This document shows positions 7,933 to 35,390 of a stretch of DNA of 64,000 bases, piece after piece (position 1 is the stretch's first letter; each line of letters starts with the position of its first letter). Under the pieces are notes generated by a model. It searched no databases and was not told the DNA's origin. It was given only the letters and a program-made list of their open reading frames with translations. Source of the DNA: Escherichia coli (GTDB taxonomy: Bacteria; Pseudomonadota; Gammaproteobacteria; Enterobacterales; Enterobacteriaceae); NCBI RefSeq assembly GCF_003334385.1, contig NZ_QOWN01000002.1; one strand, 5' to 3'. Both the position numbers and the translations under genes were made by a program.

Positions 7933-7957
7933 CTCTTTTCTCATCCTGAGTTACGGA

Positions 7958-9292
<1,335 letters not shown>

Positions 9293-14487: not shown

Positions 14488-14864
<377 letters not shown>

Positions 14865-17844: not shown

Positions 17845-19179
17845 TTATTTCTGCAATTCCATACGTTTAATGTCGCCAACTACGAAGAGGTAGCAGACCA
17901 TCGCCATCAGCGCTGAACATCCCACGAAAACCAGTGCTGCATTGAAGGAGTGCAGTTCACTTACCAGGTAGCCAATCACCAGTGGAGTGACAATGGAGGC
18001 AACATTGCCAAAGACGTTAAAGACGCCGCCGCAGAGGCCAACAATCTCTTTCGGCGCGGTGTCAGAAATCACCGGCCAGCCCAGCGCACCAAATCCTTTG
18101 CCAAAGAAAGCCAGCGCCATCAGCATGACCACCAGCGTGGTGTTGTTGGTGTAGTTACATAAGATGATGGTGGAAGCCAGCAACATTCCCAGCACAATCG
18201 GTAGCTTACGTGCCAGGGTCAGGGATAAACCGCGTTTGATCAGATAATCCGAGAAGACACCTCCCAGCACGCCGCCCGCAAAACCACACAGTGCTGGAAT
18301 CGAGGCGACCAGACCCACTTTCAGAATCGACATGCCTTTTTCCTGCACCAGATAAATCGGGAACCAGGTGAGGAAGAACCAGGTGATGGTGTTGATAAAA
18401 TATTGTCCGAAAAATACGCCCAGCATCATGCGGTTAGAGAGCAATTGCTTGATGTAATGCAGTTTGGGTCCGCTTGCTGCCGCACTGCCCGGCTTTTTGT
18501 GGTCCATATCGACCACCGCGCCATTTTCAGAGATAAACTTCAGCTCTTCCGCAGACATACGTGGGTGATCTGTCGGGTTATGAATCAACTTGATCCACAG
18601 CGCCGTCAGCACAAAACCAATCACCCCCATAACGGTAAAGACGTGCTCCCAGCCCCAGGCGAAAGTCAGCCAGCCAAGCAGCGGCGAAAAGAGCGCCAGC
18701 GAGAAATATTGCGCCGAGTTAAAGATGGCGGAGGCAGTACCACGTTCTTTCGTCGGGAACCAGGCGGCGACAATTCGGGCGTTCGCCGGGAATGATGGCG
18801 CTTCCGAGAAGCCGAGCATAAAGCGCATAAAGAACATGGAGATCCCTGCCCAGGCCAGCGGGAACATATCAACAAAGCCTTGCAGGAAGGTGAATAGCGA
18901 CCAGAAAAAGAGGCTGTAGGTGTAAACTTTTTTCGAGCCAAACTTATCAAGCAGCCAGCCGCCGGGGATTTGCATCAGCAAGTAGGCCCAGCCAAAAGCG
19001 GAGAAGATGTAACCCATCGAAACCGCACTTAACTGCAACTCTTTTGCCACTTCGGTACCAGCAATAGACAGCGTTGCACGATCGGCGTAGTTAACGGCGG
19101 TAACAATAAAAATAATCAGTAATATTAAATAGCGGGTATGCACGCCTTTCTTTTTTTCGTCAACGGTGTCCAGAATCAT
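17845..19179 (-). CDS. garP: Galactarate/glucarate MFS transporter GarP, 444 aa
   Basis: Track ORF; 12-helix MFS anion:cation symporter as first gene of garPLRK. Confidence 0.92.
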   Translation of the reverse strand: MILDTVDEKKKGVHTRYLILLIIFIVTAVNYADRATLSIAGTEVAKELQLSAVSMGYIFSAFGWAYLLMQIPGGWLLDKFGSKKVYTYSLFFWSLFTFLQGFVDMFPLAWAGISMFFMRFMLGFSEAPSFPANARIVAAWFPTKERGTASAIFNSAQYFSLALFSPLLGWLTFAWGWEHVFTVMGVIGFVLTALWIKLIHNPTDHPRMSAEELKFISENGAVVDMDHKKPGSAAASGPKLHYIKQLLSNRMMLGVFFGQYFINTITWFFLTWFPIYLVQEKGMSILKVGLVASIPALCGFAGGVLGGVFSDYLIKRGLSLTLARKLPIVLGMLLASTIILCNYTNNTTLVVMLMALAFFGKGFGALGWPVISDTAPKEIVGLCGGVFNVFGNVASIVTPLVIGYLVSELHSFNAALVFVGCSALMAMVCYLFVVGDIKRMELQK

Positions 19180-19553
19180 TTTATTTACCTCGGGTACTTA
19201 TGCTGATTTTTATTATTATGGGGAAGGTGTTATTTATGAGTTTCATTTATGCCGTAACGACAATGAACTCGGGAATTAGTATAAGCAGCGCGAGAATAAT
19301 AATCATTGTGCAAATGCTAATTTAATTAATACTATTTAAATATTATTTTGAGCATATGCACATAAGGTTGCGCGCTAAAGCACAGATTTGCGCTTTACCT
19401 TACCGGGCGGCACTGCAATCCCTGAAATGATTGACATTGATCACATTTCTGCGTTTAAACTCCTGACATTCTTATTTCACCCAATGAAGTCATTTATTTT
19501 TAAATGAGACCAGGTCCTCATTTTAATAACCCCTGGCTGGAGAATATTGCACA

Positions 19554-21125
19554 ATGGCCAACATCGAAATCAGACAAGAAACGCCAACTGCGTTTTATAT
19601 AAAAGTTCACGACACAGATAATGTGGCAATTATTGTTAATGATAATGGCCTGAAAGCAGGAACGCGTTTTCCGGATGGGCTGGAATTAATTGAACATATT
19701 CCCCAGGGGCATAAAGTCGCATTGCTGGACATTCCGGCTAATGGTGAAATTATTCGTTATGGCGAAGTGATTGGTTACGCCGTGCGTGCAATCCCACGCG
19801 GAAGCTGGATCGACGAATCAATGGTTGTACTACCGGAAGCGCCGCCGTTACACACGCTGCCACTGGCAACCAAAGTCCCGGAACCCTTACCGCCGCTGGA
19901 AGGATACACCTTTGAGGGCTATCGCAATGCCGATGGCAGCGTGGGCACCAAAAACCTGCTCGGTATCACCACCAGCGTCCACTGTGTGGCAGGCGTGGTG
20001 GACTATGTAGTAAAAATCATTGAACGCGATCTGCTACCGAAATACCCGAACGTCGATGGCGTGGTGGGGCTGAATCATTTGTACGGTTGTGGCGTGGCGA
20101 TTAACGCACCGGCGGCAGTTGTACCTATCCGTACCATTCACAATATTTCGCTGAATCCTAACTTTGGCGGCGAAGTAATGGTGATTGGCCTGGGTTGTGA
20201 AAAGTTGCAGCCTGAGCGCCTGCTGACTGGAACGGATGATGTGCAAGCTATTCCAGTAGAAAGCGCCAGCATTGTCAGTTTGCAGGATGAAAAGCATGTC
20301 GGTTTTCAGTCCATGGTCGAGGATATTTTGCAGATCGCCGAACGCCATCTACAAAAACTGAATCAACGGCAGCGAGAAACCTGCCCGGCTTCAGAACTGG
20401 TCGTTGGTATGCAGTGCGGTGGCAGCGATGCGTTTTCTGGTGTAACGGCAAACCCGGCGGTTGGCTATGCGTCTGATCTACTGGTGCGCTGCGGCGCAAC
20501 GGTGATGTTTTCAGAAGTAACGGAAGTGCGTGACGCGATCCATCTGCTGACACCACGCGCAGTGAACGAAGAGGTCGGCAAACGGCTGCTGGAGGAGATG
20601 GAGTGGTACGATAACTATCTCAATATGGGAAAAACCGACCGCAGCGCCAACCCTTCGCCGGGCAACAAGAAAGGCGGTCTGGCAAACGTGGTAGAGAAGG
20701 CACTCGGCTCCATTGCTAAATCGGGTAAAAGCGCAATTGTTGAAGTGCTGTCGCCCGGTCAACGCCCGACTAAACGCGGATTAATTTACGCCGCGACGCC
20801 AGCCAGCGATTTTGTCTGTGGCACGCAACAGGTGGCTTCGGGTATCACAGTGCAAGTGTTTACGACCGGTCGTGGTACGCCGTACGGCCTGATGGCGGTA
20901 CCCGTCATTAAAATGGCAACCCGCACCGAGCTGGCGAACCGCTGGTTTGATTTAATGGATATTAATGCGGGCACCATCGCTACCGGCGAAGAAACTATTG
21001 AAGAGGTGGGCTGGAAGTTGTTCCACTTTATTCTCGACGTCGCCAGCGGGAAGAAGAAAACCTTCTCGGATCAATGGGGGCTGCATAACCAGCTGGCGGT
21101 GTTTAACCCGGCACCGGTGACCTGA
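19554..21125 (+). CDS. garD: Galactarate dehydratase GarD, 523 aa
   Basis: Track ORF; divergent from garP across a ~370-bp AT-rich control region. Confidence 0.93.
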
Positions 21126-21147
21126 TTTCTTTTGGAACGTCCCTCGC

Positions 21148-21178
21148 AAAACATGGCCTTAGTGCCATGTTTTTATTG
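21148..21178 (+). terminator. Rho-independent terminator downstream of garD
   Basis: Hairpin acatggc-cttagt-gccatgt followed by ttttatt. Coordinates approximate. Confidence 0.6.
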
Positions 21179-21201
21179 TTTAAAGCCCCCACGTCCATTA
21201 A

Positions 21202-21217
21202 TAATGCATTTGCATTA
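21202..21217. promoter_or_regulatory. Palindromic operator in the prlF-yhaV promoter (candidate PrlF/YhaV autoregulatory site)
   Basis: Perfect inverted repeat taatgca-tt-tgcatta about 15 bp upstream of a ttataat -10-like hexamer and ~55 bp upstream of prlF. Confidence 0.5.
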
Positions 21218-21273
21218 CCTTAGTTCAAGCTTATAATTTGAGCAGAAAACAGGCTGTAAAAGGACAGTGAATC

Positions 21274-21609
21274 ATGCCCGCTAATGCTCGCTCTCACGCT
21301 GTACTGACCACTGAATCAAAGGTCACGATACGCGGACAAACAACTATCCCCGCGCCAGTGCGTGAGGCCTTAAAACTGAAGCCAGGCCAGGACAGCATTC
21401 ATTACGAAATTCTGCCTGGTGGGCAAGTATTTATGTGCCGACTGGGAGATGAACAGGAGGATCATACTATGAATGCATTTTTGCGTTTTCTGGATGCAGA
21501 TATCCAGAACAACCCGCAAAAAACTCGTCCATTCAACATTCAACAAGGAAAGAAACTTGTCGCTGGCATGGACGTCAACATTGATGATGAGATTGGCGAC
21601 GACGAATAA
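21274..21609 (+). CDS. prlF: Antitoxin PrlF (SohA), AbrB/SpoVT-type DNA-binding, 111 aa
   Basis: Track ORF; acidic C-terminal tail; stop overlaps the yhaV start (TAATG). Confidence 0.9.
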   Translation: MPANARSHAVLTTESKVTIRGQTTIPAPVREALKLKPGQDSIHYEILPGGQVFMCRLGDEQEDHTMNAFLRFLDADIQNNPQKTRPFNIQQGKKLVAGMDVNIDDEIGDDE

Positions 21610-22073
21610 TGGATTTTCCACAAAGGGTTAATGGTTGGGCGCTATATGCTCATCCCTGTTTTCAGGAAACCTACGACGCTTTAGTTGCCGAAGTCGAGAC
21701 ATTAAAGGGAAAAGATCCTGAAAATTATCAGAGAAAAGCCGCCACAAAGTTATTGGCGGTAGTCCATAAAGTGATTGAGGAGCATATCACGGTCAATCCA
21801 TCATCACCGGCATTCCGTCATGGCAAGTCGTTAGGCTCTGGGAAAAATAAAGACTGGTCACGGGTAAAATTTGGTGCTGGTCGTTATCGTCTCTTCTTTC
21901 GTTATAGTGAAAAAGAGAAAGTCATCATTCTGGGATGGATGAACGATGAAAACACTCTGCGCACCTACGGTAAAAAAACAGATGCCTATACCGTATTCAG
22001 CAAAATGTTAAAAAGAGGACATCCTCCTGCCGACTGGGAAACCCTCACCCGAGAAACAGAAGAAACCCATTGA
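21609..22073 (+). CDS. yhaV: Toxin YhaV (ribosome-dependent mRNA endoribonuclease), 154 aa
   Basis: Track ORF translationally coupled to prlF; matches YhaV. Confidence 0.9.
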   Translation: MDFPQRVNGWALYAHPCFQETYDALVAEVETLKGKDPENYQRKAATKLLAVVHKVIEEHITVNPSSPAFRHGKSLGSGKNKDWSRVKFGAGRYRLFFRYSEKEKVIILGWMNDENTLRTYGKKTDAYTVFSKMLKRGHPPADWETLTRETEETH

Positions 22074-22127
22074 TGGTGTTCACAATGCCCGCCGAACGCA
22101 TTCGTGTTGACCAGCGGGCATCCTTTC

Positions 22128-22937
22128 TCACTCCCCGACCAGAATCACTTCAACCCCAGCCTTTCGCAGTCCTTCCAGGCTATCCGCAGGAATGCCTTCA
22201 TCAACAATGATCATGTCGATACGTTGAGTATCAATGATCTTATGTAAACTGGAACGATTGAACTTACTGGAATCGGTGACCACGATGATCCGTTCCGCAA
22301 CTTCGCACATCCGACGGTTTAAACGAGCTTCATCTTCATTATGTGTGCTGACGCCGCGCTCCAGATCGATCGCATCTACACCAAGAAACAGCATATCGAA
22401 GTGGTAATTTTGCAGCGATTGCTCAGCCTGATCGCCGTAAAAAGATTGCGACTGACGGCGCAAATGCCCGCCGGTCATCAGCAGCTCAACGCCTTCCGCT
22501 TCCAGCAACGCATTAGCCACGTTCATACCGTTGGTCATCGCAATTACGTCAGTGTGCTTGCGCATCAGACGAGCAATCTCAAAAGTGGTGGTCCCGGAAT
22601 CGAGGATAACCCGATGACCTGGCTGAATCAACTCAACGGCAGCTTTCGCAACGCTGCGTTTCATCGCGGTGTTCAGTGCGCTTTTATCTTCCACTGATGG
22701 CTCGACTGACGGCGTCGTGCTATCGCAGATCAACGCGCCACCATAGGCACGCACAGCGATCCCCTGCTTTTCCAGAAACGCCAGATCGTTGCGGATCGTC
22801 ACAGTAGATACGCCATACAATGCCGACAGATCGTTAACCTGCACACTCCCTTGCTGTCGCAGACGCTGAATGATCTGTTCTCGTCGCTCGCTGGTGCCAG
22901 TCACTCGCTTCTCACCTGAAGCGTCGGTATTACTCAT
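22128..22937 (-). CDS. agaR: DeoR-family repressor AgaR of the aga/kba regulon, 269 aa
   Basis: Track ORF; N-terminal helix-turn-helix and C-terminal sugar-phosphate binding domain, divergent from kbaZ. Confidence 0.92.
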
Positions 22938-23185
22938 AGTAAGTCCTTTCGTAAAACTTTCGTTTCATTTCGTTTTGCCTATTAACGCCTTTCTATTAAG
23001 CAAATGCAAGCCCACCTTGCCCATTGACGCAAGCTACTCTCGTTTCAGTGACTTTCATTATGTTTCTTTTGTGAATCAGATCAGAAAACTATTATCTTTC
23101 GTTTTATTTTTATCTCACCATGACGCAGTATCAACTGAAACAAAACGAAAGATTAATATCGCAGTAATCTGAACTGGAGAGGAAA
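22938..23185. promoter_or_regulatory. agaR/kbaZ divergent control region with an array of AgaR operator-like repeats
   Basis: Multiple CTTTCGTTT / AAACGAAAG-type motifs (cctttcgtaaaactttcgtttcatttcgttttgcc; atctttcgttttattttt; aaacaaaacgaaagatt). Confidence 0.6.
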
Positions 23186-24466
23186 GTGAAACATCTGACA
23201 GAAATGGTGAGAGAGCACAAAGCGGGCAAAACAAATGGAATTTATGCCGTTTGTTCCGCACATCCGCTGGTGCTGGAGGCTGCAATCCGCTACGCCAGTG
23301 CAAACCAAACGCCGTTACTGATTGAAGCAACCTCCAATCAGGTAGACCAGTTCGGCGGTTATACCGGAATGACGCCCGCCGATTTTCGCGGCTTTGTTTG
23401 TCAGCTCGCCGACTCGTTGAATTTCCCGCAGGATGCGTTGATTCTGGGTGGTGACCATCTGGGGCCAAACCGCTGGCAAAACCTGCCGGCCGCTCAGGCA
23501 ATGGCCAATGCCGATGATTTGATTAAAAGCTACGTTGCGGCAGGATTCAAAAAAATCCACCTTGATTGCAGCATGTCCTGTCAGGACGATCCGATTCCCT
23601 TAACTGATGACATCGTGGCTGAACGCGCCGCCCGTCTGGCGAAAGTGGCGGAAGAAACCTGTCTTGAACACTTTGGCGAAGCCGATCTGGAGTATGTCAT
23701 TGGTACCGAAGTGCCGGTACCTGGCGGCGCGCATGAAACCTTAAGCGAGCTGGCGGTCACCACGCCGGATGCCGCCCGCGCCACGCTGGAAGCCCATCGT
23801 CACGCCTTTGAAAAGCAAGGTTTGAATGCCATCTGGCCACGCATCATTGCCCTGGTGGTTCAACCCGGCGTCGAATTCGATCACACCAACGTTATTGATT
23901 ATCAGCCCGCCAAAGCGAGCGCCTTAAGCCAGATGGTCGAAAACTACGAAACGCTGATTTTCGAAGCGCACTCTACCGATTATCAAACGCCGCAATCGCT
24001 GCGCCAGCTGGTGATTGACCACTTTGCCATTCTGAAAGTTGGCCCAGCGCTGACCTTCGCCCTGCGTGAAGCTCTGTTCTCTCTGGCGGCGATTGAAGAA
24101 GAACTGGTGCCAGCGAAAGCCTGTTCTGGTCTGCGTCAGGTGCTGGAAGACGTGATGCTCGACCGCCCGGAATACTGGCAAAGCCACTACCACGGTGACG
24201 GCAACGCGCGTCGTCTGGCGCGTGGTTATAGCTACTCGGATCGCGTGCGCTATTACTGGCCGGACAGCCAGATTGATGACGCTTTCGCTCATCTGGTACG
24301 TAATCTGGCGGATTCACCAATTCCGCTGCCGCTGATCAGCCAGTATCTGCCGCTGCAGTACGTGAAAGTTCGCTCCGGCGAGCTGCAGCCAACGCCACGG
24401 GAACTCATTATCAACCATATTCAGGACATCCTGGCGCAGTACCACACAGCCTGTGAAGGCCAATAA
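23186..24466 (+). CDS. kbaZ: Tagatose-1,6-bisphosphate aldolase non-catalytic subunit KbaZ (AgaZ), 426 aa
   Basis: Track ORF with GTG start; first gene of the aga PTS operon. Confidence 0.92.
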
Positions 24467-24488
24467 GCAAAACAAAGAGGAACACGCT

Positions 24489-24962
24489 ATGCCAAATATT
24501 GTTTTAAGCCGGATTGATGAACGCTTGATTCACGGTCAGGTCGGCGTTCAATGGGTCGGATTTGCGGGGGCAAATCTGGTGCTGGTAGCCAACGATGAGG
24601 TTGCCGAAGATCCGGTACAACAAAACCTGATGGAAATGGTACTGGCAGAAGGGATCGCCGTACGTTTCTGGACGCTGCAAAAAGTTATCGACAACATTCA
24701 TCGCGCCGCCGATCGACAGAAAATCCTGCTGGTTTGTAAAACACCCGCCGATTTCCTGACGCTGGTGAAAGGTGGCGTTCCGGTGAATCGCATTAACGTT
24801 GGCAATATGCACTACGCCAATGGCAAACAACAAATCGCCAAAACGGTTTCTGTGGATGCGGGCGATATCGCAGCATTTAACGACCTGAAAACCGCTGGGG
24901 TGGAATGCTTCGTTCAGGGCGTCCCGACAGAGCCTGCTGTGGACCTCTTTAAATTACTTTGA
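24489..24962 (+). CDS. agaV: PTS EIIB, N-acetylgalactosamine-specific (AgaV), 157 aa
   Basis: Track ORF 24453..24962; start set at internal ATG after the RBS aagagga, giving MPNIVLSRIDERLIHGQ with the mannose-family EIIB phospho-His motif. Confidence 0.88.
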   Translation: MPNIVLSRIDERLIHGQVGVQWVGFAGANLVLVANDEVAEDPVQQNLMEMVLAEGIAVRFWTLQKVIDNIHRAADRQKILLVCKTPADFLTLVKGGVPVNRINVGNMHYANGKQQIAKTVSVDAGDIAAFNDLKTAGVECFVQGVPTEPAVDLFKLL

Positions 24963-24972
24963 GGGATTCATC

Positions 24973-25752
24973 ATGGAAATCAGCCTGTTGCAGGCATTTG
25001 CGTTGGGCATTATCGCCTTTATCGCTGGCCTGGATATGTTTAACGGCCTAACCCATATGCACCGCCCGGTGGTCCTCGGCCCGTTGGTCGGGCTGGTACT
25101 TGGCGATCTGCATACCGGAATTTTAACCGGCGGTACGCTGGAACTGGTGTGGATGGGGCTGGCCCCGCTGGCGGGCGCACAGCCGCCTAACGTGATTATC
25201 GGTACTATCGTCGGCACGGCGTTTGCCATTACTACTGGCGTGAAACCCGATGTCGCAGTAGGTGTCGCCGTACCTTTCGCTGTCGCAGTACAGATGGGGA
25301 TTACCTTCCTGTTCTCGGTGATGTCCGGCGTGATGTCTCGCTGCGACCGGATGGCGGAGAACGCCGATACTCGCGGCATTGAACGCGTGAACTATCTGGC
25401 ACTGCTGGCACTCGGCATTTTCTATTTTCTCTGCGCTTTCCTGCCTATCTACTTCGGCGCGGAACATGCAAAAACCATCATTGATGTCCTGCCGCAACGA
25501 TTAATCGACGGCCTCGGCGTCGCGGGCGGCATCATGCCAGCAATCGGTTTTGCCGTGCTGCTGAAAATCATGATGAAAAACGTCTACATCCCCTACTTCA
25601 TCCTGGGCTTTGTTGCCGCCGCCTGGCTCAAGTTACCAGTGCTGGCTATTGCTGCCGCTGCGCTGGCGATGGCGCTGATCGACTTGCTGCGTAAATCTCC
25701 TGAACCGACTCAACCTGCGGCACAGAAAGAGGAATTTGAAGATGGCATCTAA
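24973..25752 (+). CDS. agaW: PTS EIIC, N-acetylgalactosamine-specific (AgaW), full-length 259 aa
   Basis: Track ORF; mannose-family IIC membrane protein, paralogous to AgaC at 31262..32065. Confidence 0.88.
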   Translation: MEISLLQAFALGIIAFIAGLDMFNGLTHMHRPVVLGPLVGLVLGDLHTGILTGGTLELVWMGLAPLAGAQPPNVIIGTIVGTAFAITTGVKPDVAVGVAVPFAVAVQMGITFLFSVMSGVMSRCDRMAENADTRGIERVNYLALLALGIFYFLCAFLPIYFGAEHAKTIIDVLPQRLIDGLGVAGGIMPAIGFAVLLKIMMKNVYIPYFILGFVAAAWLKLPVLAIAAAALAMALIDLLRKSPEPTQPAAQKEEFEDGI

Positions 25753-26620
25753 TCAAACCACCCTGCCGAACGTCAGTGAAAACGAAGAAACATTGCTGAC
25801 TGGCGTCAATGAAAACGTGTATGAAGATCAGAGCATTGGCGCGGAGCTGACGAAAAAAGATATCAACCGCGTCGCCTGGCGTTCCATGCTGTTACAAGCG
25901 TCTTTTAACTACGAACGTATGCAGGCTTCTGGCTGGTTGTACGGTCTGCTGCCTGCTCTGAAAAAGATCCACACTAATAAACGCGACCTGGCGCGCGCCA
26001 TGAAGGGGCATATAGGTTTCTTCAATACCCATCCGTTTCTGGTGACGTTTGTTATCGGCATTATCCTTGCGATGGAGCGTTCTAAGCAGGACGTTAACAG
26101 TATTCAGAGCACCAAAATTGCCGTCGGTGCGCCGCTTGGCGGGATTGGCGATGCAATGTTCTGGCTAACGCTACTGCCGATTTGTGGCGGGATTGGAGCC
26201 AGTCTGGCATTGCAAGGCTCCATTCTTGGCGCAGTCGTCTTTATTGTGCTGTTCAACGTGGTACACCTGGGGCTGCGTTTTGGTCTGGCGCATTATGCTT
26301 ACCGCATGGGCGTGGCGGCGATTCCACTGATTAAAGCGAATACCAAAAAAGTCGGCCATGCTGCGTCTATCGTTGGGATGACGGTAATCGGTGCGCTGGT
26401 GGCAACCTATGTTCGTTTAAGCACCACGCTGGAAATCACGGCGGGCGACGCAGTGGTTAAGTTACAGGCTGATGTTATCGACAAACTGATGCCGGCCTTC
26501 TTACCGTTGGTCTACACCCTGACCATGTTTTGGTTGGTACGCCGCGGCTGGAGTCCGCTGCGTCTGATTGCAGTTACCGTGGTTCTCGGCATCGTCGGTA
26601 AATTCTGCCATTTCCTTTAA
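25736..26620 (+). CDS. agaE: PTS EIID, N-acetylgalactosamine-specific (AgaE), ~292-294 aa
   Basis: Track ORF; mannose-family IID, paralogous to AgaD; overlaps the agaW 3' end. Confidence 0.88.
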   Translation: MKMASNQTTLPNVSENEETLLTGVNENVYEDQSIGAELTKKDINRVAWRSMLLQASFNYERMQASGWLYGLLPALKKIHTNKRDLARAMKGHIGFFNTHPFLVTFVIGIILAMERSKQDVNSIQSTKIAVGAPLGGIGDAMFWLTLLPICGGIGASLALQGSILGAVVFIVLFNVVHLGLRFGLAHYAYRMGVAAIPLIKANTKKVGHAASIVGMTVIGALVATYVRLSTTLEITAGDAVVKLQADVIDKLMPAFLPLVYTLTMFWLVRRGWSPLRLIAVTVVLGIVGKFCHFL

Positions 26621-26637
26621 ATACAATGAGGTATTAG

Positions 26638-27072
26638 ATGTTAAGTATTATTTTGACAGGGCATGGCGGGTTTGCCAGCGGCATGGAAAAAGCAATGAAG
26701 CAAATTCTCGGTGAGCAATCGCAGTTTATCGCCATCGATTTTCCGGAAACCTCAAGCACCGCGCTGCTTACATCGCAGCTTGAAGAGGCCATCGCCCAAC
26801 TGGATTGTGAAGACGGCATTGTTTTTCTGACGGATTTGCTGGGCGGCACGCCGTTTCGCGTAGCTTCAACGCTGGCGATGCAAAAACCGGGCTGTGAAGT
26901 GATCACCGGCACCAATTTGCAACTGCTACTGGAGATGGTGCTGGAGCGCGAAGGGTTAAGCGGTGAAGAATTCCGTGTACAGGCGCTGGAGTGTGGACAC
27001 CGAGGGCTGACCAGTCTGGTGGACGAGTTAGGCCGCTGCCATGAAGAATGTCCGGTCGAGGAAGGAATATGA
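26638..27072 (+). CDS. agaF: PTS EIIA, mannose family (AgaF), 144 aa
   Basis: Track ORF; EIIA-Man fold N-terminus MLSIILTGHGGFASG. Confidence 0.88.
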   Translation: MLSIILTGHGGFASGMEKAMKQILGEQSQFIAIDFPETSSTALLTSQLEEAIAQLDCEDGIVFLTDLLGGTPFRVASTLAMQKPGCEVITGTNLQLLLEMVLEREGLSGEEFRVQALECGHRGLTSLVDELGRCHEECPVEEGI

Positions 27073-28202
27073 CACACGTTCTGCGCGCCAGAAGGCTGCT
27101 GACTGAAGAGGGATGGCTCGATGACCATCAGTTGCGTATTGCTGACGGTGTCATCGCAGCAATCGAACCGATTCCAGCGGGCGTGACTGAACGCGATGCG
27201 GAACTGCTCTGCCCTGCTTACATCGACACCCATGTACACGGTGGTGCGGGCGTTGATGTAATGGATGACGCGCCGGATGTACTCGACAAGCTGGCAATGC
27301 ACAAGGCACGCGAAGGTGTCGGCAGTTGGTTACCGACCACCGTAACCACGCCGCTTAATACCATTCATGCGGCGCTGAAACGTATTGCTCAACGTTGCCA
27401 ACGCGGCGGACCTGGTGCGCAAGTGCTGGGGAGTTATCTCGAAGGACCGTACTTCACGCCGCAGAATAAAGGCGCGCATCCGCCGGAGTTGTTTCGCGAG
27501 CTTGAAATTGCCGAGCTGGATCAGTTGATTGCCGTTTCTCAGCACACCTTACGTGTGGTAGCGCTGGCACCGGAAAAAGAAGGGGCATTGCAGGCCATCC
27601 GCCATCTTAAACAGCAAAACGTAAGGGTGATGCTGGGGCATAGCGCGGCGACCTGGCAACAAACCCGCGCCGCATTTGATGCTGGTGCCGACGGCCTGGT
27701 GCATTGCTATAACGGGATGACAGGTTTACATCACCGCGAACCGGGAATGGTTGGCGCGGGATTAACGGACAAGCGCGCCTGGCTGGAACTGATAGCCGAT
27801 GGTCATCATGTGCATCCGGCGGCAATGTCGCTGTGTTGTTGCTGTGCGAAAGAGAGAATCGTACTGATCACCGACGCGATGCAGGCAGCTGGGATGCCGG
27901 ATGGTCGCTATACGTTATGTGGTGAAGAAGTGCAGATGCACGGTGGCGTTGTCCGTACCGCGTCTGGTGGGCTGGCGGGCAGTACGCTGTCTGTTGATGC
28001 GGCAGTGCGCAATATGGTCGAGTTGACGGGCGTAACGCCTGCGGAAGCCATCCATATGGCGTCGCTGCATCCGGCGCGAATGCTGGGTGTTGATGGTGTT
28101 CTGGGATCGCTTAAACCGGGCAAACGCGCCAGCGTCGTTGCGCTGGATAGCGGGCTACATGTGCAACAAATCTGGATTCAGGGTCAATTAGCTTCGTTTT
28201 GA
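27069..28202 (+). CDS. agaA: N-acetylgalactosamine-6-phosphate deacetylase AgaA, full-length 377 aa
   Basis: Track ORF 27048..28202; start set at ATG after the RBS gaagga (MTHVLRARRLL); NagA-like amidohydrolase. Overlaps the agaF stop. Confidence 0.88.
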   Translation: MTHVLRARRLLTEEGWLDDHQLRIADGVIAAIEPIPAGVTERDAELLCPAYIDTHVHGGAGVDVMDDAPDVLDKLAMHKAREGVGSWLPTTVTTPLNTIHAALKRIAQRCQRGGPGAQVLGSYLEGPYFTPQNKGAHPPELFRELEIAELDQLIAVSQHTLRVVALAPEKEGALQAIRHLKQQNVRVMLGHSAATWQQTRAAFDAGADGLVHCYNGMTGLHHREPGMVGAGLTDKRAWLELIADGHHVHPAAMSLCCCCAKERIVLITDAMQAAGMPDGRYTLCGEEVQMHGGVVRTASGGLAGSTLSVDAAVRNMVELTGVTPAEAIHMASLHPARMLGVDGVLGSLKPGKRASVVALDSGLHVQQIWIQGQLASF

Positions 28203-28204
28203 TA

Positions 28205-28375
28205 GTTTGCTCCTTTATTGGGCCTTCACTTCCCCCGTAAGGCCTTTCTTTTTCTTTCGTTTTGATCTGTGCAGCGGTGTCGGATGCGACGCTAACGCGT
28301 CTTATCCGACCTACAGTTGGTGACCGCAAGGCCGGATAAAGCGTTTGCGCCGCATCCAGCAATCCCTTTTGCTTC
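28205..28375. repeat. REP/BIME cluster between agaA and agaS
   Basis: REP-like palindromic units gtcggatgcgacgctaacgcgtcttatccgacctac and ggccggataaagcgtttgcgccgcatccagc. Coordinates approximate. Confidence 0.7.
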
Positions 28376-28552
28376 CTTTATCTTTTCTTTCAACGATCAC
28401 AAATTTCGTTTTATTTCTTTTTTCTCCATTGAACTTTCAGTTTCTTTTCTATAGATTTTAATCAACGAAAGACATCACCAAGTGAAATGAAACGAAAGGC
28501 AAGTGAAAGCGACAACGCCCGACGTCAAGTTCATCAGACTAAGGATTGAGTT
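28376..28552 (+). promoter_or_regulatory. agaS promoter region with AgaR operator-like repeats
   Basis: Dense CTTTC / GAAAG repeats (tctttcaacgatcacaaatttcgttttatttc...gaaatgaaacgaaaggcaagtgaaagcg) of the same family as the agaR/kbaZ region. Confidence 0.55.
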
Positions 28553-29707
28553 ATGCCAGAAAATTACACCCCTGCTGCCGCCGCAACCGGTACATGGACT
28601 GAAGAAGAGATCCGCCATCAGCCTCGCGCATGGATCCGTTCACTCACCAACATCGACGCGCTACGTTCCGCGCTCAATAACTTCCTTGAACCGTTACTGC
28701 GCAAAGAGAATCTGCGGATCATCCTGACCGGAGCCGGAACGTCGGCATTTATCGGTGACATCATCGCGCCGTGGCTCGCCAGCCATACCGGTAAAAACTT
28801 CAGCGCCGTACCGACCACCGATCTGGTCACCAATCCGATGGACTACCTGAACCCAGCTCATCCGCTGCTGTTGATCTCCTTCGGTCGATCCGGCAACAGC
28901 CCGGAAAGCGTCGCAGCCGTGGAACTGGCAAATCAATTTGTACCGGAATGCTATCACCTGCCGATCACCTGCAACGAAGCGGGCGCTCTTTACCAAAACG
29001 CGATCAACAGCGATAACGCGTTTGCCCTGCTGATGCCCGCAGAAACGCACGATCGCGGCTTTGCGATGACCAGCAGCATTACCACCATGATGGCCAGCTG
29101 CCTCGCGGTTTTCGCACCTGAGACGATCAACAGCCAAACCTTCCGCGACGTGGCGGATCGTTGCCAGGCGATCCTGACCTCACTGGGCGATTTCAGCGAA
29201 GGTGTGTTTGGTTACGCACCGTGGAAACGGATCGTTTATCTCGGTAGCGGTGGCTTACAGGGCGCAGCACGCGAGTCGGCGCTGAAAGTGCTGGAACTGA
29301 CGGCGGGTAAACTGGCGGCCTTTTATGATTCTCCAACCGGATTCCGTCATGGACCAAAATCGCTGGTCGATGACGAAACGCTGGTGGTGGTATTTGTCTC
29401 CAGCCACCCTTACACCCGTCAGTATGATCTTGATCTGCTGGCTGAACTTCGCCGTGACAACCAGGCAATGCGTGTAATCGCCATCGCCGCGGAAAGCAGC
29501 GACATCGTCGCTGCCGGTCCACATATCATCCTGCCACCGTCACGTCACTTTATCGACGTTGAGCAGGCATTTTGCTTCCTGATGTACGCCCAGACGTTTG
29601 CACTGATGCAGTCGCTGCACATGGGCAATACGCCGGATACCCCATCAGCCAGTGGCACCGTTAACCGCGTGGTGCAAGGCGTAATCATTCATCCGTGGCA
29701 GGCATAA
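28553..29707 (+). CDS. agaS: Galactosamine-6-phosphate deaminase/isomerase AgaS (SIS domains), 384 aa
   Basis: Track ORF; tandem SIS-domain protein at the conserved position. Confidence 0.92.
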   Translation: MPENYTPAAAATGTWTEEEIRHQPRAWIRSLTNIDALRSALNNFLEPLLRKENLRIILTGAGTSAFIGDIIAPWLASHTGKNFSAVPTTDLVTNPMDYLNPAHPLLLISFGRSGNSPESVAAVELANQFVPECYHLPITCNEAGALYQNAINSDNAFALLMPAETHDRGFAMTSSITTMMASCLAVFAPETINSQTFRDVADRCQAILTSLGDFSEGVFGYAPWKRIVYLGSGGLQGAARESALKVLELTAGKLAAFYDSPTGFRHGPKSLVDDETLVVVFVSSHPYTRQYDLDLLAELRRDNQAMRVIAIAAESSDIVAAGPHIILPPSRHFIDVEQAFCFLMYAQTFALMQSLHMGNTPDTPSASGTVNRVVQGVIIHPWQA

Positions 29708-30580
<873 letters not shown>

Positions 30581-30746
30581 TCATTAGTTTTTTATGATTT
30601 ATCCCAATGTACTTCCCGATTAATATCGGGGAGTGCCTTAATGGAAAAGGAGATAACTAAACCTTAATAAATACATCACTACAATATCGCAACAATAATA
30701 TATTTAAAAAAATTATATTATTCAACTTTATGGTGAGGATTACACA

Positions 30747-31223
30747 ATAACCAGTCCAAATATTCTCTTAACCCGTATTGATAACCGTCTGGTTCACGGT
30801 CAGGTTGGCGTGACCTGGACATCCACCATCGGTGCAAATCTGCTGGTAGTCGTGGATGATGTTGTCGCTAACGATGATATTCAACAGAAATTAATGGGTA
30901 TTACCGCGGAAACCTACGGCTTTGGCATTCGTTTCTTTACTATCGAAAAAACCATTAACGTCATCGGCAAAGCTGCACCACATCAGAAGATCTTCCTGAT
31001 TTGCCGTACGCCACAAACGGTACGTAAATTGGTAGAAGTTGGTATTGACCTGAAAGATGTCAACGTCGGCAATATGCATTTCTCGGAAGGGAAAAAGCAA
31101 ATCAGCAGTAAAGTTTATGTCGATGACCAGGATCTCACGGACTTACGTTTTATTAAACAACGTGGCGTGAATGTTTTCATTCAGGACGTCCCTGGCGATC
31201 AAAAAGAACAAATCCCTGACTAA
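30747..31223 (+). CDS. agaB: PTS EIIB, galactosamine-specific (AgaB), 158 codons if initiated at the expected position
   Basis: Track ORF 30810..31223 starts at a GTG. The reading frame continues upstream and encodes the EIIB phospho-His segment TSPNILLTRIDNRLVHGQ. The codon at the expected start, 7 nt after the SD ggtgagga, reads ATA; there is no in-frame ATG/GTG/TTG between the upstream stop (~30705) and 30810. Confidence 0.7.
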   Translation: MTSPNILLTRIDNRLVHGQVGVTWTSTIGANLLVVVDDVVANDDIQQKLMGITAETYGFGIRFFTIEKTINVIGKAAPHQKIFLICRTPQTVRKLVEVGIDLKDVNVGNMHFSEGKKQISSKVYVDDQDLTDLRFIKQRGVNVFIQDVPGDQKEQIPD

Positions 31224-31261
31224 ATCTAAAATCGCCTTAATATTGGTTTGAGGTAATAAAA

Positions 31262-32065
31262 ATGCATGAAATAACCCTACTTCAGGGATTATCCCTGGCG
31301 GCGTTAGTTTTTGTTCTGGGGATTGATTTTTGGCTGGAAGCCTTATTTTTATTCCGCCCGATAATCGTTTGTACCCTAACTGGCGCTATTCTCGGTGATA
31401 TTCAGACTGGCTTAATTACCGGTGGTCTGACAGAGTTGGCTTTCGCCGGATTAACCCCTGCAGGTGGTGTTCAGCCGCCCAACCCGATTATGGCGGGTCT
31501 GATGACCACCGTCATTGCATGGTCTACGGGCGTTGATGCCAAAACAGCAATTGGTCTTGGCCTGCCGTTTAGTTTGTTAATGCAGTACGTCATTCTGTTC
31601 TTCTATTCCGCTTTCTCATTATTTATGACCAAAGCCGATAAATGCGCGAAAGAGGCGGATACGGCAGCGTTTTCCCGGCTTAACTGGACAACGATGCTCA
31701 TCGTCGCTTCAGCGTATGCGGTGATTGCTTTCCTCTGTACTTACCTGGCACAGGGGGCGATGCAGGCGCTGGTGAAAGCGATGCCCGCCTGGCTGACCCA
31801 CGGCTTTGAAGTGGCTGGCGGTATTCTGCCTGCCGTTGGTTTTGGCTTGCTGCTGCGCGTAATGTTCAAAGCGCAATATATCCCTTACCTGATCGCCGGT
31901 TTCCTGTTTGTTTGCTACATCCAGGTCAGCAACCTGTTGCCGGTTGCCGTACTGGGCGCAGGCTTTGCGGTGTATGAGTTTTTCAATGCGAAATCCCGGC
32001 AGCAAGCGCAACCGCAGCCCGTTGCCAGTAAAAATGAAGAAGAGGACTACAGCAATGGGATCTGA
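31262..32065 (+). CDS. agaC: PTS EIIC, galactosamine-specific (AgaC), 267 aa
   Basis: Track ORF; mannose-family IIC. Confidence 0.92.
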   Translation: MHEITLLQGLSLAALVFVLGIDFWLEALFLFRPIIVCTLTGAILGDIQTGLITGGLTELAFAGLTPAGGVQPPNPIMAGLMTTVIAWSTGVDAKTAIGLGLPFSLLMQYVILFFYSAFSLFMTKADKCAKEADTAAFSRLNWTTMLIVASAYAVIAFLCTYLAQGAMQALVKAMPAWLTHGFEVAGGILPAVGFGLLLRVMFKAQYIPYLIAGFLFVCYIQVSNLLPVAVLGAGFAVYEFFNAKSRQQAQPQPVASKNEEEDYSNGI

Positions 32066-32846
32066 AATCAGTAAAAAAGATATCACCCGTCTGGGCTTTC
32101 GTTCGTCGCTGCTGCAAGCGAGCTTTAACTACGAAAGGATGCAGGCGGGCGGTTTTACCTGGGCGATGTTGCCGATCCTGAAAAAGATTTATAAGGACGA
32201 CAAACCGGGCTTAAGCGCGGCGATGAAAGATAACCTCGAATTTATTAATACCCACCCGAATCTGGTCGGATTCCTGATGGGGTTATTAATTTCGATGGAA
32301 GAAAAAGGAGAAAACCGCGACACCATTAAAGGCCTCAAAGTGGCACTGTTTGGCCCAATCGCCGGGATTGGCGATGCGATTTTCTGGTTTACTTTGTTGC
32401 CGATTATGGCGGGAATTTGCTCATCATTTGCCAGCCAGGGAAACCTGCTGGGGCCGATTCTATTTTTCGCCGTTTACCTGCTTATCTTTTTCCTGCGCGT
32501 CGGCTGGACCCACGTCGGTTATTCAGTCGGCGTGAAGGCGATCGATAAAGTGCGAGAGAACTCGCAGATGATTGCCCGTTCGGCAACCATCCTCGGGATC
32601 ACGGTAATCGGCGGGCTGATCGCTTCGTATGTGCATATTAACGTGGTGACATCGTTTGCCATCGACAATACCCACAGCGTTGCGCTGCAGCAGGATTTCT
32701 TCGATAAAGTCTTCCCGAACATTTTACCGATGGCCTACACCCTGCTGATGTATTACTTCCTGCGGGTGAAAAAAGCGCATCCGGTGCTGTTAATCGGCGT
32801 GACTTTTGTGCTCTCTATTGTTTGTTCCGCATTCGGCATTTTGTAA
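32055..32846 (+). CDS. agaD: PTS EIID, galactosamine-specific (AgaD), 263 aa
   Basis: Track ORF 31908..32846 is over-extended into agaC; start set at ATG giving MGSEISKKDITRLGFRSSLLQASFNYERMQ; overlaps the agaC stop by 11 nt. Confidence 0.9.
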   Translation: MGSEISKKDITRLGFRSSLLQASFNYERMQAGGFTWAMLPILKKIYKDDKPGLSAAMKDNLEFINTHPNLVGFLMGLLISMEEKGENRDTIKGLKVALFGPIAGIGDAIFWFTLLPIMAGICSSFASQGNLLGPILFFAVYLLIFFLRVGWTHVGYSVGVKAIDKVRENSQMIARSATILGITVIGGLIASYVHINVVTSFAIDNTHSVALQQDFFDKVFPNILPMAYTLLMYYFLRVKKAHPVLLIGVTFVLSIVCSAFGIL

Positions 32847-33602
32847 ATGGAACGAGGCACTGCGTCTGGTGGTGCCTCTTTACTTAAGGAATTTCATCCT
32901 GTGCAAACCCTTCAGCAAGTTGAAAACTATACGGCGTTAAGTGAACGTGCCAGCGAATATTTATTGGCCGTGATCCGTAGCAAACCGAATGCCGTGATTT
33001 GCCTGGCGACCGGAGCCACGCCATTACTGACGTATCATTATCTGGTAGAAAAAATCCACCAGCAGCAGGTTGATGTCAGCCAGCTCACCTTCGTGAAGCT
33101 CGACGAATGGGTGGATCTGCCATTAACGATGCCAGGCACCTGCGAAACTTTCCTGCAACAGCATATCGTGCAGCCGCTGGGGCTACGTGAAGACCAGCTC
33201 ATCAGCTTTCGCTCCGAAGAGATAAATGAGACAGAGTGCGAACGGGTAACGAACCTGATTGCGCGCAAAGGCGGTCTGGATTTATGCGTTCTCGGATTGG
33301 GGAAAAACGGTCATCTTGGGCTGAACGAACCGGGAGAAAGCCTGCAACCGGCCTGCCATATCAGTCAACTTGATGCCAGAACACAGCAACATGAGATGTT
33401 AAAAACCGCGGGTCGCCCCGTGACTCGTGGGATCACCTTAGGCCTGAAGGATATTCTCAATGCCCGCGAAGTTTTGTTACTGGTGACTGGCGAAGGAAAG
33501 CAGGATGCGACAGATCGTTTTCTCACGGCTAAAGTCTCTACCGCTATCCCGGCTTCATTTTTATGGCTGCACAGTAACTTTATTTGTTTAATTAACACCT
33601 AA
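32847..33602 (+). CDS. agaI: Galactosamine-6-phosphate isomerase/deaminase AgaI (NagB-like), 251 aa
   Basis: Track ORF; GlcN6P deaminase family, last gene of the aga cluster. Confidence 0.9.
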   Translation: MERGTASGGASLLKEFHPVQTLQQVENYTALSERASEYLLAVIRSKPNAVICLATGATPLLTYHYLVEKIHQQQVDVSQLTFVKLDEWVDLPLTMPGTCETFLQQHIVQPLGLREDQLISFRSEEINETECERVTNLIARKGGLDLCVLGLGKNGHLGLNEPGESLQPACHISQLDARTQQHEMLKTAGRPVTRGITLGLKDILNAREVLLLVTGEGKQDATDRFLTAKVSTAIPASFLWLHSNFICLINT

Positions 33603-34002
33603 CCAGATGAAAAATTTGCTCAAAATGTTTAAATTAACTTATGTAACAGTCACGCATTATATTAAATAACATTTGACTGGGTTGAACATAACGCCGATAG
33701 CAAAAGGAGTTATGTTCAACAATTTAATTTTAGATATACATATAACTTGTTCTATTAATAAATCACCTCGTATTCTGACTCGCCCCCTGGCGCAGCAAAG
33801 TCAGGCATTTATACTCTTTTGAATACATAGAAAATTGATATCAATATAATGAAAATATCAAATATTTGCATATAAATATAATCTTAAAGTTCAGTCTATT
33901 TAATGTTCAATGAAATATTTCTGCCTGTATAATCTTTAAAGATGTTGAACATATATTCACATTAAATATGATTATGTACTTGTTACAAGGATAAGGTTAT
34001 AT

Positions 34003-34587
34003 ATGAATAAAGTTACAAAAACAGCTATTGCGGGCTTACTTGCGCTTTTCGCAGGTAATGCCGCTGCAACCGATGGTGAAATAGTTTTTGATGGCGAGAT
34101 TTTAAAATCCGCTTGTGAAATCAATGACTCTGATAAGAAAATTGAAGTTGCTCTTGGTCACTATAATGCCGAACAGTTTCGTAATATTGGCGAGCGTAGC
34201 CCAAAAATTCCATTCACTATTCCTTTAGTTAACTGCCCAATGACTGGGTGGGAGCACGATAACGGCAACGTTGAAGCGTCTTTCCGTCTATGGCTGGAAA
34301 CGCGAGATAATGGCACCGTCCCTAACTTCCCTAATCTGGCAAAAGTAGGCTCTTTTGCTGGCATAGCGGCAACAGGTGTGGGTATCCGTATTGACGATGC
34401 GGAAAGCGGAAACATTATGCCACTGAATGCTATGGGCAATGATAACACGGTTTATCAGATCCCGGCGGAATCCAATGGTATTGTCAATGTTGACCTCATC
34501 GCTTACTACGTATCAACCGTAGTTCCATCAGAAATCACCCCAGGGGAAGCAGACGCTATCGTTAACGTAACGCTGGATTACCGTTAA
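34003..34587 (+). CDS. yraH: Fimbrial major subunit-like protein YraH, 194 aa
   Basis: Track ORF; signal peptide MNKVTKTAIAGLLALFAGNAAA and fimbrial subunit C-terminus; first gene of the chaperone-usher operon. Confidence 0.88.
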   Translation: MNKVTKTAIAGLLALFAGNAAATDGEIVFDGEILKSACEINDSDKKIEVALGHYNAEQFRNIGERSPKIPFTIPLVNCPMTGWEHDNGNVEASFRLWLETRDNGTVPNFPNLAKVGSFAGIAATGVGIRIDDAESGNIMPLNAMGNDNTVYQIPAESNGIVNVDLIAYYVSTVVPSEITPGEADAIVNVTLDYR

Positions 34588-34593
34588 TACGTT

Positions 34594-34628
34594 AGGGCGT
34601 TATCTGACCTGTCAGATAACGCCCTTTT
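34594..34628 (+). terminator. Hairpin terminator/attenuator after yraH
   Basis: gggcgttatctgac-ctg-tcagataacgccc followed by tttt, immediately after the yraH stop. Coordinates approximate. Confidence 0.6.
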
Positions 34629-34666
34629 CCTTCCTCTTTCTCGTTGTATCAGGTTGAAAAATAACT

Positions 34667-35362
34667 ATGTCAAAACGAACATTCGCGGTGATATTAACCT
34701 TGTTGTGTAGCTTCTGTATTGGCCAGGCGCTTGCAGGAGGAATCGTTTTACAGCGAACGCGAGTGATCTATGATGCCAGCCGCAAAGAGGCTGCGTTACC
34801 TGTCGCAAACAAAGGCGCAGAAACGCCTTATTTACTGCAATCATGGGTAGATAATATAGATGGTAAAAGCCGTGCCCCATTTATTATAACCCCACCGCTA
34901 TTTCGTCTTGAGGCTGGCGATGACTCATCACTGCGAATTATTAAAACAGCTGATAACCTGCCTGAAAATAAAGAGTCGCTGTTCTACATTAATGTTCGTG
35001 CCATTCCAGCAAAGAAAAAATCAGATGATGTTAATGCTAACGAGTTGACGCTGGTATTTAAAACACGGATCAAAATGTTTTATCGCCCCGCACACCTGAA
35101 GGGACGGGTAAACGATGCGTGGAAATCACTGGAATTTAAACGTAGTGACCATTCACTCAATATATATAACCCAACTGAATATTACGTCGTATTTGCCGGA
35201 CTGGCAGTCGATAAAACCGATCTCACAAGCAAAATTGAATATATCGCGCCCGGAGAACATAAACAGTTACCACTTCCTGCATCTGGCGGAAAGAACGTGA
35301 AATGGGCTGCGATCAATGATTATGGCGGCAGTTCCGGGACAGAAACTCGTCCACTGCAATAA
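34667..35362 (+). CDS. yraI: Periplasmic fimbrial chaperone YraI (PapD-like), 231 aa
   Basis: Track ORF; signal peptide and PapD-family chaperone sequence. Confidence 0.88.
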
Positions 35363-35390
35363 AAAATATAAAAACACAGGTCATCAGGGA

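Follow-up and report, generated by a model that had tools for sequence, protein, structure and literature searches.

The aga/gam cluster

We analyzed a 64,000-nucleotide stretch of Escherichia coli DNA, referred to here as the window, and found that it holds a normal, complete aga/gam cluster running from agaR to agaI (Table 1), which serves growth on N-acetylgalactosamine and galactosamine, both mucin sugars. [quoted passage not shown] E. coli C is annotated with the same order, and the frames are uninterrupted. Every protein of the N-acetylgalactosamine (GalNAc) branch (AgaV, AgaW, AgaE, AgaF, and AgaA) scored above the cut-off of its curated model, and AgaB, AgaC, AgaD, AgaS, and AgaI likewise exceeded the curated cut-offs of their NCBIfam models. 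Together with the open reading frame (ORF) check, these scores bore out an earlier sequence-only reading of the same DNA, which had placed both phosphotransferase system (PTS) sets, AgaA, AgaS, KbaY/KbaZ, and AgaI in the window. The window PTS has its four-component IIA/IIB/IIC/IID architecture in common with the mannose-family ManXYZ PTS, but ManXYZ and the housekeeping NagA are separate paralogues, and the window proteins fell below the cut-offs of the ManXYZ and NagA models.

The aga/gam regulon of E. coli C was reportedly treated by Brinkkötter et al. in 2000. The window has the 13 genes of that regulon (Hu et al. 2013, PMC3668189) in the same order and with the same spacing. It differs from E. 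coli C in AgaE M91I, KbaZ Q10E, the ATA start codon of agaB, and AgaB G98V, and residue 112 of AgaV is Gly in the window and Cys in E. coli C. The role of the agaS product was established in E. coli in the same work, which also found agaI to be dispensable for Aga and Gam growth (PMC3668189).

Table 1. Genes and sequence features of the aga/gam cluster in the window
Feature	Position	Strand	Product or nature	Observations
agaR	22128..22937	-		Intact 269-aa ORF; lies where agaR is annotated in K-12 and E. coli C
kbaZ	23186..24466	+	Tagatose-bisphosphate aldolase subunit	Intact 426-aa ORF, GTG start; heads the kbaZ-agaVWEFA operon
agaV	24489..24962	+	PTS IIB component for GalNAc	Intact, 157 aa; NCBIfam NF008508, 319.7 bits (cut-off 180)
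agaW	24973-25752	+	PTS IIC component for GalNAc	ATG start, 259 aa; NCBIfam AgaW equivalog NF040757, 410.5 bits (cut-off 300)
agaE	25742-26620	+	PTS IID component for GalNAc	ATG start, 292 aa; NF040760, 615.7 bits (cut-off 500)
agaF	26638-27072	+	PTS IIA component common to the GalNAc and GalN systems	144 aa; NF040761, 219 bits (cut-off 130)
agaA	27069-28202	+	GalNAc-6-phosphate deacetylase, NagA paralogue	377 aa; TIGR00221, 290 bits (cut-off 225.65)
agaS	28553..29707	+	GalN-6-phosphate deaminase/isomerase	Intact, 384 aa; TIGR02815, 634.9 bits (cut-off 529.2); heads the agaS-kbaY-agaBCDI operon
kbaY	29720..30580	+	Tagatose-1,6-bisphosphate aldolase	Intact, 286 aa; K-12 and E. coli C annotation
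agaB	30747..31223	+	PTS IIB component for GalN	Start codon ATA, not ATG (change at 30749); G98V (31039)
agaC	31262..32065	+	PTS IIC component for GalN	Intact, 267 aa; NF007289, 407.2 bits (cut-off 300)
agaD	32055..32846	+	PTS IID component for GalN	Intact, 263 aa; NF007359, 456.9 bits (cut-off 400)
agaI	32847..33602	+	NagB-like deaminase	Intact, 251 aa; NF007291, 472.5 bits (cut-off 271)
Segment missing from K-12 MG1655	25349..27653		2,305 bp	BLAST break points; junction read directly
Left GCGACC copy	25343..25348	+	Direct repeat	Sequence read; extends to imperfect 9-mer GCTGCGACC
Right GCGACC copy	27648..27653	+	Direct repeat	Sequence read; extends to imperfect 9-mer GCGGCGACC

Reading frames of the agaW-agaE-agaF-agaA block

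With gene starts taken from the RefSeq annotation of E. coli C, the agaW, agaE, agaF, and agaA frames are all open on the plus strand at full length (259, 292, 144, and 377 codons), with zero internal stops. The ORF check found no frameshift or nonsense mutation in this block or in the kbaZ-agaVWEFA operon. The sequence-only reading had also called the four genes full length, its figure of "~294" codons for agaE corresponding to the maximal ORF from a TTG at 25736 (294 aa), and these ORFs hold no frameshift that it missed. The maximal agaA ORF starts from an ATG at 27048 and is 384 aa long. Overlaps are as in the reference, 11 bp between agaW and agaE and 4 bp between agaF and agaA.

The DNA sequences of agaW and agaA are the same as in E. 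coli C, and the block as a whole departs from E. coli C at a single base in 3,230, a G-to-A change at 26014 that gives AgaE M91I; the AgaW, AgaF, and AgaA proteins are identical between the two. AgaF begins MLSIILTGHGG, with the N-terminal IIA phospho-histidine, His9, present, and residue 91 is Gly. In this it differs from the 2006 spinach-outbreak isolates of O157:H7, in which Gly91Ser is a known Aga− mutation (PMC4809568).

The gene at 27069-28202 carries the PGAP label "nagA." AgaA is an amidohydrolase of the same family as NagA, which serves the GlcNAc pathway, and either protein can take the place of the other (PMC3668189). The agaA product scored 225.8 bits on the housekeeping NagA equivalog PRK11170 (GlcNAc-6-P deacetylase), below its cut-off of 483, and, judged by its sequence, the gene is the AgaA paralogue in spite of its label.

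The segment absent from K-12

The aga cluster of K-12 MG1655 (b3131 to b3141) has the same flanks and gene order as the window, but K-12, which is Aga− Gam−, is without 2,305 bp corresponding to window positions 25349-27653. BLAST aligned window 18272-25348 with K-12 3274000-3281076 and window 27644-36577 with K-12 3281067-3290000. The exactly mapped ends of the K-12 deletion each carry a copy of GCGACC, a 6-bp direct repeat. At the K-12 junction, GCTGCGACC is joined directly to TGGCAACAA; this junction is not found in the window, where the full segment is present. Lost from K-12 are the 3' half of agaW, the whole of agaE and agaF, and codons 1 to 195 of agaA; what remains, agaW up to codon 125 and agaA starting at codon 196, is fused out of frame. 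In the MG1655 annotation, agaW and agaA are pseudogenes and agaE and agaF are absent. The 2,305 bp were lost from K-12 between the two short GCGACC repeats, an event that destroyed agaW and agaA and took agaE and agaF with it.

In the literature, a 2.3-kb deletion is the cause of the Aga− Gam− phenotype of K-12 (PMC3668189; PMC2808357), and the 2,305-bp gap mapped here is that published "2.3 kb" deletion. The sequence-only reading had described a K-12 deletion of about 2.3 kb, and its account agrees with the MG1655 annotation, with the alignment gap between 25348 and 27654, and with the published record.

agaB and the galactosamine branch

The same reading had qualified its view of the pathway with a caveat over the start of agaB, and the caveat was justified: the codon at 30747-30749 reads ATA, and AgaB also carries G98V. 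Owing to agaB, the window does not hold a galactosamine branch in which AgaB, AgaC, and AgaD are all translatable from a canonical start with their conserved residues in place; agaC and agaD are intact. Since an ATA start is combined here with G98V at a conserved glycine, galactosamine-specific uptake via AgaBCD is probably weak or lost. We see about an even chance that the lineage has lost, or nearly lost, its galactosamine-specific PTS by two hits in agaB (ATG to ATA, and G98V) while keeping the GalNAc system. If this is true, it would be Aga+ Gam− by a route other than the annotated agaC truncation of O157:H7, and the agaB double hit would add one more independent case to a decay of the galactosamine branch that recurs in E. 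coli. O157:H7 EDL933, which is GalNAc-positive, resembles the window in having agaVWEFA intact and a lesion in an agaBCD transporter gene, which in EDL933 impairs the galactosamine branch. It differs in that its Gam− state goes with an annotated truncated agaC and a split agaI, whereas agaC and agaI are intact in the window and the lesion lies in agaB.

The chief competing explanation, which we consider unlikely but still worth serious weight, is that the strain uses both sugars normally, as does E. coli C, which is Aga+ Gam+ (PMC3668189). The ATA codon would then suffice for initiation, or AgaV would stand in as the IIB component, and G98V would be tolerated. The agaB Shine-Dalgarno sequence, GAGGA (30735-30739), lies 7 nt upstream of the ATA and is undamaged, and initiation from AUA is measurable, but it reaches only about 0.02 to 3% of the AUG level (bioRxiv 10.1101/063800), and the next in-frame start, a GTG at 30810, would cut away the His17 region. 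In favor of substitution, AgaV is a paralogue of AgaB and scores 190 bits on the AgaB model. Tolerance of G98V sits less easily with the conservation of G98 in the three solved IIB homologues with listed alignments. PGAP calls the ATA allele of strain SCU-104 a full-length agaB, yet SCU-104 is the one carrier among 5,176 complete genomes, and because of this rarity we take the allele to be generally selected against. SCU-104 itself was rejected as a member of this lineage, as it shows 19 differences in 40 kb and is without AgaB G98V.

Lineage-specific changes and AgaE M91I

Five lineage-specific single-nucleotide polymorphisms (SNPs), treated as private to the window when set against all complete genomes, lie in or beside the cluster: kbaZ Q10E (position 23213), agaE M91I, agaB M1I, agaB G98V, and a yraJ change that is synonymous. 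We rejected sequencing errors or artificial edits as their source, since the exact variant proteins occur in public assemblies and one draft contig matches the window at 100% across 20,477 bp. The exact KbaZ protein is present in 4 public assemblies.

AgaE M91I bears on a second alternative, that the GalNAc pathway is nonfunctional despite the intact block, for example through a disabled IID subunit, and that its genes are becoming pseudogenes. Met91 lies within a highly conserved motif and does not vary among 11 orthologues spanning Escherichia to Aeromonas, so that a transport defect is conceivable, and four of the five lineage-specific SNPs alter a protein, one of them destroying a start codon, which fits relaxed selection at the locus. 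The Met-to-Ile change is conservative, however, and Leu stands at the equivalent residue of the paralogue AgaD. An identical M91I protein is encoded on 24 public contigs, which indicates that it persists in nature. The operon is without frameshifts or stops, and its AgaW, AgaF, and AgaA do not differ from the proteins that function in E. coli C. On this evidence we regard a nonfunctional GalNAc pathway as improbable.

Relationship of the strain to K-12

The window and K-12 MG1655 3255729-3317423 are collinear, the 2,305-bp segment being the one indel. Over the 61.7 kb aligned, 18 SNPs separate it from MG1655, running from window position 1718 to 62954, and identity is 99.97% (99.96 to 99.99% outside the indel); the distance is thus not the near-zero one of the K-12 lineage. 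Positions 20747-41223 of the window (20,477 bp) are 100% identical to a draft assembly of a non-K-12 E. coli isolate (GCA_012504395.1). Three window segments were searched against 5,426 complete RefSeq genomes and had no exact match there, the best matches carrying roughly 5, 3, and 6 mismatches as estimated from bit-score deficits.

Because the SNPs are spread across the window and the draft isolate assembly is 100% identical, the window is, on sequence grounds, non-K-12 DNA from a natural E. coli strain very close to K-12. The sequence-only reading had proposed a non-K-12 background, and the intact segment, the 18 SNPs, and the identity to GCA_012504395.1 agree with it; the alignments that it suggested, against K-12 MG1655 and E. 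coli C, returned the 2,305-bp K-12 gap and the one-base difference in the block. That the DNA instead comes from a K-12 derivative in which P1 transduction, conjugation, or engineering repaired the aga region with a foreign patch from an Aga+ donor is scarcely credible: identity to MG1655 is very high and collinearity full save for the 2,305 bp, a P1 fragment of about 90 to 100 kb could span the entire 64-kb window, and there are Aga+ donors, E. coli C among them, but no flank is identical to K-12, and neither E. coli C nor the closest complete genomes carry kbaZ Q10E, agaE M91I, or agaB G98V, which co-occur in independent draft isolate assemblies.

We are therefore highly confident that the window holds the ancestral aga/gam regulon, complete with all 13 genes, of a natural E. 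coli strain very near K-12 but not K-12. The intact agaW-agaA segment serves as a strain marker that excludes an unmodified K-12 background.

Predicted pathway and phenotype

The kbaZ-agaVWEFA operon encodes a mannose-family PTS composed of AgaV (IIB), AgaW (IIC), AgaE (IID), and AgaF (IIA), which would import N-acetylgalactosamine as GalNAc-6-P. AgaA would deacetylate GalNAc-6-P, and AgaS, from the downstream operon, would deaminate and isomerize the product to tagatose-6-P. After phosphorylation of the tagatose-6-P, cleavage by KbaY/KbaZ would yield triose phosphates. AgaR would act as the repressor of both operons.

We predict that the strain grows on GalNAc, since its AgaW, AgaF, and AgaA proteins are the same as in E. 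coli C, which is Aga+ Gam+. The predicted phenotype is a split one, GalNAc-positive and probably galactosamine-impaired. GalNAc is a mucin-derived sugar relevant to gut colonization, and the block predicts a capacity to use it. Nothing in the block or the cluster is new in kind, the genes are almost identical to ones already characterized by experiment, and the difference from K-12 is already known; only the lineage-specific agaB damage, with the split phenotype that it predicts, is mildly informative.

Distribution of the intact block

At least 80% of the agaW-agaA block was present in 4,930 of 5,426 complete E. coli genomes (91%). The intact block is the species norm of E. coli, and its absence from K-12 is an ordinary, already documented strain difference. 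Because 91% of complete genomes share the intact state, it says little beyond the exclusion of K-12, and, the K-12 aga deletion having been described since 2000, the finding gives no new biology. The K-12 deletion junction was found in 369 of the 5,426 complete genomes, and among the full-junction matches listed (n = 11), 10 were K-12 or laboratory strains.

The agaW-agaE-agaF-agaA block is intact in the window and disrupted in K-12

We aligned the window with K-12 MG1655 by BLAST and obtained two collinear blocks, window 18272-25348 and 27644-36577. Reading the junction directly showed that exactly 2,305 bp is missing in K-12. The lost segment is flanked by the direct repeat GCGACC, each copy of which extends to an imperfect 9-mer, GC[T/G]GCGACC. 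What remains in K-12 is agaW codons 1 to 125 joined out of frame to agaA from codon 196, annotated in MG1655 as agaW (402 bp) and agaA (504 bp) pseudogenes with nothing in between; agaE and agaF are wholly gone. This gap corresponds exactly to the "2.3 Kb deletion" of the literature, which renders K-12 unable to use N-acetylgalactosamine (Aga−) or galactosamine (Gam−) (Hu et al. 2013, PMC3668189; Chaudhuri et al. 2010, PMC2808357), for which both papers cite Brinkkötter et al. 2000. The sequence-only reading had described such a deletion correctly. It had also described all four genes as full length, and an ORF list for 19-36 kb, together with a frame-by-frame check on E. coli C gene coordinates, found each of them uninterrupted. 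The longest agaE ORF, 294 aa from a TTG at 25736, accounts for the approximate length of 294 codons given previously. The overlaps of agaW with agaE (11 bp) and of agaF with agaA (4 bp) are the same in the reference annotation.

Features of the aga region and of the rest of the window
Feature	Window position	Strand	Detail
agaW	24973-25752	+	ATG start, 259 aa, uninterrupted
agaE	25742-26620	+	ATG start, 292 aa, uninterrupted
agaF	26638-27072	+	ATG start, 144 aa, uninterrupted
agaA	27069-28202	+	ATG start, 377 aa, uninterrupted
Segment missing in K-12	25349-27653		2,305 bp
GCGACC repeats	25343-25348, 27648-27653		flank the missing segment
agaB	30747-31223		ATA start codon, 30747-30749
agaB Shine-Dalgarno	30735-30739		GAGGA
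Next in-frame agaB start	30810		GTG, codon 22
Cluster SNP	23213		kbaZ Q10E, codon 10
Cluster SNP	26014		agaE M91I, codon 91
Cluster SNP	30749		agaB M1I (ATG to ATA)
Cluster SNP	31039		agaB G98V
Cluster SNP			yraJ, synonymous
yhaC non-synonymous changes	12934, 13566, 13639		
Tandem array	14118-14510		between yhaC and rnpB
prlF-yhaV	21274-22073		type II toxin-antitoxin pair

We compared the 3,230-bp block with 5,426 complete E. coli genomes: 5,317 gave a match, and 4,930 (91%) had at least 80% of it in one place. A 70-bp probe for the K-12 junction was covered over at least 80% of its length in only 369 genomes. In an even sample down the ranking, 11 rows had the full junction, and 10 of these were MG1655, BW2952, ER1709, JW strains, conjugation recipients or other laboratory strains. 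The exception, EC06 (NZ_CM169496.1), has the exact K-12 junction and a recorded human host; either a strain derived from K-12 or a contaminant may have been entered as a clinical isolate. The deletion marks the K-12 lineage; an intact block is what the species normally has, not an unusual feature. All of the block finding agrees with textbook accounts of the E. coli aga/gam regulon and of the K-12 deletion, and was already known.

We scored the proteins against NCBIfam equivalog models with curated cut-offs. AgaW (410.5; cut-off 300), AgaE (615.7; 500), AgaF (219; 130) and AgaV (319.7; 180) all passed by a clear margin, and AgaB, AgaC, AgaD, AgaS and AgaI each exceeded their own cut-offs. AgaA passed the general NagA-family model TIGR00221 (290; cut-off 225.65) but fell far under the cut-off of the housekeeping NagA model (225.8; 483), which identifies it, on model scores, as the AgaA paralogue despite its PGAP label, "nagA". 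That label follows from the passing of TIGR00221. RefSeq/PGAP calls this gene "nagA" in every listed genome, a systematic naming ambiguity.

The window derives from a natural relative of K-12

Over its full 64 kb the window follows the order of MG1655 3255729-3317423 (cyuA to nusA) collinearly, the 2,305 bp being the sole indel, and differs from it by 18 SNPs scattered from 1718 to 62954 (99.97% identity). The background is that of a very close K-12 relative, yet this divergence is well above what would be expected among K-12 derivatives. No identical genome was found among complete RefSeq genomes; for the three query segments, bit-score deficits put the best matches at roughly 5, 3 and 6 mismatches respectively.

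Five SNPs in or beside the cluster are not in K-12, E. coli C or LR-21-1 (NZ_AP027487.1), the closest complete genome. SCU-104 (NZ_CP053284.1) lacks four of them and shares the agaB start change. KbaZ Q10E, absent from SCU-104 as well, is found together with AgaB G98V: four public assemblies, whose accession numbers are consecutive, encode both variant proteins exactly. The exact AgaE M91I protein is found on 24 public contigs, and DABAMG010000001.1 (GCA_012504395.1) matches window 20747-41223 at 100%, not one of the 20,477 bp being mismatched. The variant proteins and this match led us to reject both a sequencing artefact as the source of the cluster SNPs and a K-12 origin of the window; the variants are genuine, and the window derives from a natural E. 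coli lineage. The earlier claim that the strain is not K-12 therefore holds, on the 2,305-bp segment, the 18 SNPs and the contig match.

Sixteen coding differences were tabulated, 11 non-synonymous and 5 synonymous. Fifteen are relative to MG1655; the 16th, agaE M91I, lies in the segment absent from K-12 and was compared with other genomes. Three of the 11 fall in yhaC. The proportion is high for E. coli core genes and suggests either relaxed selection or mutations that are recent and have been weakly purged. In LR-21-1, an IS3-family insertion splits yhaB and yhaC is frameshifted (6791-8666), whereas the window has neither lesion.

GalNAc use is predicted to be retained

The block differs from that of E. 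coli C at a single base, 26014, and AgaW, AgaF and AgaA are consequently protein-identical to those of a strain that is Aga+ Gam+ by experiment (PMC3668189). AgaF has both His9 and Gly91; a Gly91Ser mutation underlies the Aga− isolates of the 2006 O157:H7 spinach outbreak (PMC4809568). AgaE position 91 is Met in all 11 aligned orthologues (Escherichia, Serratia, Izhakiella, Erwinia and Aeromonas) and the matching position of the paralogue AgaD is Leu; M91I is conservative and probably tolerated. Tagatose-6-P is phosphorylated by PfkA. The AgaVWEF PTS supplies GalNAc-6-P, AgaA deacetylates it (NagA can replace AgaA, and agaA is non-essential), AgaS carries out deamination and isomerisation to tagatose-6-P, and after a phosphorylation step KbaY/KbaZ split the resulting bisphosphate; AgaI is not required, and AgaR represses the operons (PMC3668189). 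From the identity to E. coli C proteins we infer that the strain is GalNAc-positive, in line with the potentially functional pathway proposed from sequence alone.

agaB is probably damaged

That proposal was qualified by a problem at the agaB start, and the problem is real, ATA standing in place of ATG. A 61-bp probe centred on the ATA was exact in 1 of 5,176 complete genomes, SCU-104; the others have ATG. The Shine-Dalgarno sequence is intact. Use of the next in-frame start would drop RIDNRLVHGQ, including His17, which we take by homology to be the phospho-histidine of mannose-family IIB domains. G98V sits in the motif LVEGG, and glycine 98 is conserved in three solved structures, those of O157:H7 AgaB (3eye) and of two IIB proteins that are more distant. 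AUA initiation in E. coli reaches only ~0.02-3% of that from AUG (bioRxiv 10.1101/063800). With an ATA start and G98V in one small gene, the galactosamine-specific IIB is probably crippled, and we lean towards predicting impaired growth on galactosamine. Alternatively, residual ATA initiation or cross-talk from AgaV could provide enough AgaB function. The agaB damage would give an Aga+ Gam− phenotype, reached by a route other than the lesions annotated in O157:H7. Only this lineage-specific damage is mildly new.

In SCU-104, PGAP annotates the ATA-start agaB (20031-20507) as a normal full-length CDS. Given that this strain does not carry G98V and shows 19 differences from the window over 40 kb, the ATA start may have had two independent origins or have spread by recombination.

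Other features of the window

In the tandem array a 113-bp unit is repeated 3.5 times (96% matches), each unit opening with a terminator-like hairpin, AAACCCGCCGAAGCGGGTTTTT; the array presumably corresponds to the repeat array long known beside the RNase P RNA gene. The prlF-yhaV pair directly adjoins agaR, as it does in K-12.
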